Assembly: GCA_021463465.1 (NCBI GenBank)
Contig: JAJTYH010000002.1
Span: 137,799 to 201,798, forward strand
DNA from: a bacterium
GTDB taxonomy: Bacteria > Patescibacteriota > Dojkabacteria > SC72
Length of the DNA: 64,000 nt
Direction of reading: 5' to 3'
The notes under the pieces were generated by a model. The model saw only the letters and a program-made list of their open reading frames with translations. It searched no databases and was not told the origin of the DNA. Positions 60,996 through 62,909 of the stretch are shown in pieces (the stretch's first letter is position 1; every line of letters starts with the position of its first letter). The translations under genes and the position numbers were made by a program.

Positions 60996-62909
<1,914 letters not shown>

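Follow-up and report, generated by a model that had tools for sequence, protein, structure and literature searches.

The locus described here raises the question of how an essential, single-copy gene can carry an internal stop codon while being intact in every other respect. The gene is gyrB, and the stop is a TGA that lies exactly on a conserved glycine codon in a CPR genome, where it could reflect a reassignment of UGA to glycine, a site-specific recoding event, a genuine nonsense mutation or an error in the assembled sequence. The stretch of DNA that was analysed, hereafter the window, is 64,000 nucleotides long, has a GC content of 38.7%, and belongs to Candidatus Dojkabacteria (WS6), a lineage of the CPR, as indicated by the best named GyrB homologues and by 80 genome loci.

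The gyrB gene and its neighbours

The preliminary description was correct in claiming that a single in-frame TGA occupies the codon of the second Gly of the PEGGTH motif of GyrB, i.e., codon 281. The upstream open reading frame (60996-61838) encodes 280 residues ending in ...NNIINPEG, and the coding sequence resumes in the same frame after the TGA with THLSGFR and continues to the terminal TAA at 62907-62909. When the TGA is read through, the product is a GyrB of 637 residues. The nearest homologues retrieved by a database protein search are 84-85% identical and 636-638 residues long, and GyrB homologues carry four Pfam domains (PF02518, PF00204, PF01751 and PF00986). Among the 120 GyrB homologues listed, 117 contain the motif P[ED]G-G-TH with Gly at the TGA site; for the remaining three, a simple pattern search gave no match to the motif. 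Over its 1,914 nt, the gene matches the intact same-strain copy at 100% identity save for the T at 61836, and thus shows no decay. A two-piece GyrB, in which translation would restart at Met 61905, was considered and rejected, as 22 conserved residues would be missing from it and GyrB is a single chain in the same strain. Inteins do occur in the gyrB genes of Dojkabacteria (homologues P0004, P0008, P0019 and P0038, of about 1,070-1,083 residues with PF14890); none is present in the gyrB of the window. Many genome records titled 'uncultured Candidatus Saccharibacteria bacterium' (L005, L008, L010-L012 and others) also encode GyrB proteins of 70-80% identity; the taxonomic label in these titles seems to be generic or mistaken.

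The gyrB gene is followed by a gene for a DUF4013 membrane protein and by the start of gyrA (Table 1). The identical DUF4013 protein is encoded on 14 contigs, and on one contig of the same strain (L085) it precedes a complete gyrA of 920 residues (PF00521, PF03989). The gyrB-DUF4013-gyrA synteny is also seen in two relatives (L001 and L002), and relatives keep the order holB-like, gyrB, DUF4013, gyrA. Because this gene order is conserved, the gyrB of the window can be regarded as the syntenic gyrase gene and not as a stray copy.

The gyrase operon adjoins a large type IV pilus cluster, which encodes a PilM-like protein, two T2SSE/MshE ATPases, a T2SSF protein, a prepilin peptidase and a pseudopilin with an N-methyl motif. 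The cluster is kept in the same-strain contigs and partly in L002. One T2SSE ATPase is called as 346 residues at 2035-4172 of L086 (GCA_020853275.1, JADYZE010000029.1) and as 674 residues in the Logan contigs; the alignment of the L086 DNA with the window shows no additional differences, and the shorter call is probably a matter of gene calling or annotation.

Table 1. Coordinates, within the window, of the features and sequence differences discussed in the text.
Feature	Position	Strand	Remarks
gyrB (DNA gyrase subunit B)	60996..62909	+	637 codons + TAA; one internal TGA, otherwise intact
In-frame TGA	61836..61838	+	T at 61836 unique to source assembly; G (GGA) in others
holB-like (DNA_pol3_delta2, PF13177)	60255-60958		split into two ORFs by missing A
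A8 run	60645..60652	+	A9 in every same-strain contig; frameshifts holB-like gene
DUF4013 membrane protein	62912..63745	+	between gyrB and gyrA; exact-match anchor for same-strain contigs
gyrA start	63752..64000	+	truncated by window end
mutS	18257-20884	-	private missense F63S, K92T
Type IV pilus cluster	41159-59362		adjoins gyrase operon
Window-only substitutions	8368, 9865, 20610, 20697, 22980, 23779, 28702, 30200, 46105, 54446, 56942, 61836		
Run-adjacent window-only substitutions	23779, 28702, 46105, 54446, 56942, 20697		five A-to-C, one A-to-G
Window-only deletion	60645-60652		A9 to A8
Polymorphism patches	6165-7566, 13272-13584, 15045-15428, 33352-35138, 41474-41593		mostly synonymous

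Genetic code of the window

An organism that uses table 25 (UGA=Gly) or table 4, with UGA employed very sparsely, would read through the gyrB TGA as a matter of course. The position of the TGA exactly on an invariant Gly is in line with such a code, as are the CPR affiliation and the GC content of the genome. However, no internal stop other than the gyrB TGA occurs in the 53 gene models of the window (20,013 codons), in which Gly is otherwise encoded by 1,345 GGN codons; the earlier statement that the other long reading frames are not broken by TGA was correct. Furthermore, TGA serves as a terminator, as these 53 genes end in TAA (31), TAG (11) or TGA (11). Extension of the genes beyond their TGA terminators adds few codons or forces overlaps, and the TGA-ended genes match the lengths called in the same strain (e.g., MutS, 875 residues; NusB, 140 residues). 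The ATGA overlap in which nusB was said to end was likewise confirmed. The single tRNA gene of these 64 kb is Val-GAC, and prfB was not seen in the window, nor is it expected there.

As a positive control, public metagenomes were scanned for gyrB genes encoding P-E-G-TGA-T-H-L, which yielded three matching contigs (L107, L108 and L109, from JGI Ga0256840, Ga0256843 and Ga0256841, respectively) with a GC content of 22-29%. Each of their gyrB genes contains 20-27 in-frame TGAs, mostly aligned to Gly residues of the window GyrB, and TGA makes up 33-53% of the codons at Gly positions (GGN plus TGA). These contigs evidently come from UGA=Gly (table 25) organisms, and the single TGA of the window contrasts with what such genomes contain. 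The reassignment of UGA to Gly is reported, in a recent review, to be confined to the Gracilibacteria/JAEDAM01 (formerly SR1) lineage (PMC13293708; see also PMC8629427), a clade to which the Dojkabacteria do not belong. Sparse use of table 25, which the preliminary description had entertained, is thus already refuted within the window, and the probability that the genome follows table 25 or table 4 is negligible.

The site in independent assemblies of the strain

DNA of the same strain was found via exact matches of neighbouring genes, namely those for DUF4013, the T2SSE/MshE ATPase, ClpB and a penicillin-binding protein. The resulting set comprises the Logan assemblies SRR17318674 (with a contig of 121.8 kb), SRR17318676, SRR30163052, SRR30163053, SRR30163055, SRR35280563, SRR36303774 and ERR10655367/68/72/75, as well as the NCBI assembly GCA_020853275.1. 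The same-strain loci are 99.5-100% identical to the window and span 60,598 of its 64,000 bases, with positions 1-1903 and 24841-26339 lying outside this coverage. Position 61836 is covered by eight loci from seven assemblies (Logan SRR17318674, SRR17318676, SRR30163052, SRR30163053, ERR10655368 and ERR10655372; NCBI GCA_020853275.1), which are 99.96-100% identical to the window, and all eight loci have G at this position, i.e., a GGA codon for Gly. On the same-strain contigs that contain the whole gene, gyrB is called as a single intact product of 637 residues. The preliminary description had singled out reads with GGA at this site as the observation that would count against its reading of the TGA, and it is this codon that the independent assemblies contain. 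Of the options listed there, a base-call error and a nonsense allele are favoured by this result, which speaks against both UGA=Gly and site-specific readthrough.

Other searches bear on how far the strain and its alleles are represented elsewhere. The same-strain GyrB was not among the matches of a large protein search, the best of which were 84-85% identical. A scan of JGI metagenomes for an exact 51-mer in which the key base was left free gave no match, the strain being absent from them under either allele. The two gyrB halves, the holB fragment and the MutS F63S/K92T variant were also looked up by exact match, and no other assembly has them on record.

The data also bear on the proposal that the UGA undergoes site-specific recoding, through programmed readthrough, near-cognate suppression or selenocysteine insertion, to give full-length GyrB. 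The two gyrB halves share one frame and are otherwise perfectly conserved, as this proposal would have it. Termination at a UGA that precedes an A is comparatively leaky in bacteria. However, a programmed stop would be expected to be conserved together with its context, whereas this one is shared by neither the same-strain assemblies nor the relatives. The corresponding codon in the gyrB genes of 83 other Dojkabacteria is GGN in every case (GGT 49, GGA 29, GGG 3, GGC 2); in all 83, the 275 codons before the site are free of in-frame TGA, and the first stop downstream of it is the normal gene end. These codon statistics were drawn from gyrB loci of a genome collection, which are too distant to serve for same-strain comparison: the nearest species representative found there by the GyrB scan is 78% identical. 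More distant relatives, with about 73% identity in gyrB DNA, have GGT, GGG or GGA at the codon. Because the TGA is conserved at neither level, it does not behave as a programmed signal. Moreover, no SECIS-like hairpin was found in the 81 nt spanning the TGA (61830-61910), whose predicted fold (-10 kcal/mol) is no better than that of shuffled sequences (z=0.19), and an Rfam scan of 60500-63000 gave no meaningful match, the sole match with E<=1 being at chance level and far below the family threshold. To our knowledge, the replacement of an invariant Gly by selenocysteine is without precedent. Recoding at this codon is therefore considered very improbable.

Origin of the substitution and comparison with known systems

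The window agrees with the SRR17318674 contig at 109 of 109 naturally polymorphic sites. Compared with all same-strain sequence, it has 12 substitutions and one deletion of its own (Table 1), which amounts to roughly one in every 4,661 of the 60,598 bases compared. The T at 61836 is unique to the source assembly and is accompanied by other unique differences that look unselected. The 13 window-only differences comprise five synonymous, six missense, one nonsense and one frameshift change, i.e., a silent to non-silent ratio of 5:8, against 90 synonymous and 19 nonsynonymous differences among the natural polymorphisms of the same-strain assemblies (Fisher p=0.0013), 89 of the 109 natural polymorphisms being at third codon positions. 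The ratio of transitions to transversions also differs, at 3:9 for the window-only substitutions and 78:31 for the natural ones (Fisher p=0.0022). Substitutions falling at random in the genes of the window would be expected to be silent in 22% of cases and nonsense in 4.7%. The private differences thus combine an absence of purifying selection with an error-like spectrum, as artefacts would. The natural differences are themselves unevenly distributed, forming dense, mostly synonymous patches between long identical stretches, in a pattern that looks like recombination among closely related strains.

The sequence context of the window-only differences is also informative. Five of the 12 substitutions are A-to-C changes adjoining a C run, and another is an A-to-G change after GGGG. 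An A-to-C change beside a C run and a change in homopolymer length are typical of technical error and not of mutation. In the light of this general knowledge of sequencing error modes, the run-boundary and homopolymer-length pattern suggests a systematic technical error mode of the source assembly. The G-to-T change at GGA|GGA is itself unlike the run-extending substitutions that form half of the window-only set, which counts against reading it as an error. The placement of a TGA on a Gly codon needs no special explanation, since 12 random coding substitutions would produce one or more nonsense codons with a probability of about 0.44, and 22% of all codons in the window that lie one step from TGA are GGA.

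The deletion is the second window-only difference that breaks a gene, and it lies 1.2 kb upstream of the gyrB TGA. It affects the holB-like gene for the delta-prime subunit of DNA polymerase III, which is left in the window as reading frames of 143 and about 103 residues. At the seven same-strain loci that cover the run, it consists of nine A residues in each case, and the gene yields one product of 234 residues on contigs L085-L087 and L095-L098.

Altogether, these findings led us to conclude that the T at 61836 is probably a single-base consensus error in one Dojkabacteria assembly, with a probability of roughly 0.86. This reading is favoured because all seven covering assemblies of the strain have G, because the window-only differences behave like noise in both selection and transition to transversion ratio, because the holB-like gene and gyrB, both essential and 1.2 kb apart, are broken in the source assembly alone, and because the window-only protein variants are on record nowhere else. 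From the comparison of independent assemblies, we infer a technical cause rather than a real mutation. The error would have arisen during sequencing, polishing or amplification; the gyrB of the organism would hold GGA (Gly) at codon 281 and would be translated normally under the standard bacterial code, with UGA as a stop and no recoding.

It has also to be considered that a real nonsense mutation, in the form of a rare or very recent allele from the population or from a single amplified cell, became the consensus. The step from GGA to TGA is one transversion, and the unselected look of the window-only differences would also fit very recent mutations. The mutS gene of the window also has two missense changes of its own, K92T and F63S, the latter in the conserved AG-F-P segment, and these make a mutator sub-lineage conceivable. 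Nevertheless, an allele that abolishes an essential single-copy gene, and that comes with a frameshift in another essential gene 1.2 kb away, would be unlikely to rise to consensus frequency, and neither lesion is found in the seven other assemblies of the strain. The A-to-C changes beside C runs and the homopolymer-length change are, as stated above, of a technical type. A mutator lineage arising from the two MutS changes was rejected: the mismatch-binding motif GDFFETF is intact, and the occurrence of two of the 13 private differences in mutS is not significant (p about 0.1 by our own binomial estimate). These changes could be further errors, a mutator allele being less likely. A carrier of the nonsense allele would lack functional gyrase, unless UGA were misread at a low level, and would represent an evolutionary dead end and not an adaptation. 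A real nonsense mutation is thus regarded as unlikely.

On the favoured reading, the gyrB TGA is almost certainly not a real feature of the organism, whose gyrB is intact and uses the standard code. There is only a minute chance that the TGA truly exists as an allele in a Dojkabacteria sub-population kept viable by sufficiently frequent misreading of UGA at this codon, possibly by way of a weak release factor 2 in the reduced translation system of the CPR. If so, a viable misread UGA would constitute an ambiguous-intermediate stage toward reassignment outside Gracilibacteria/Absconditabacteria, and such a tolerated allele would bear on how stop-codon reassignment starts; nothing here supports it. 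The practical implication is one of caution, as a single in-frame TGA on an invariant Gly in a CPR genome mimics genetic code 25, and GGA is among the commonest one-step precursors of TGA. Annotating the genome with table 25, or gyrB and holB as pseudogenes, would be wrong.

Comparison with known systems places the locus accordingly. Like the table-25 Gracilibacteria and Absconditabacteria/SR1, it has a CPR host and a TGA where all orthologues have Gly; in contrast to them, the window has one internal TGA in 20,013 codons, against 20-27 in a single table-25 gyrB, 11 of its genes end with TGA, and it is of Dojkabacteria origin. With selenocysteine insertion and programmed readthrough the locus shares one in-frame UGA in a gene that is otherwise intact, yet it is devoid of a downstream hairpin, the UGA is conserved neither in the strain nor in the 83 relatives, and the residue concerned is an invariant Gly instead of a Cys. 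The closest resemblance would be to the residual consensus errors of MAG and long-read genomes, from which the window differs in that its assignment rests on independent assemblies and not on pileups. Such errors, too, are isolated lesions of one assembly; they lack the imprint of purifying selection, occur preferentially at homopolymer boundaries, and disrupt essential genes that are otherwise perfectly conserved.
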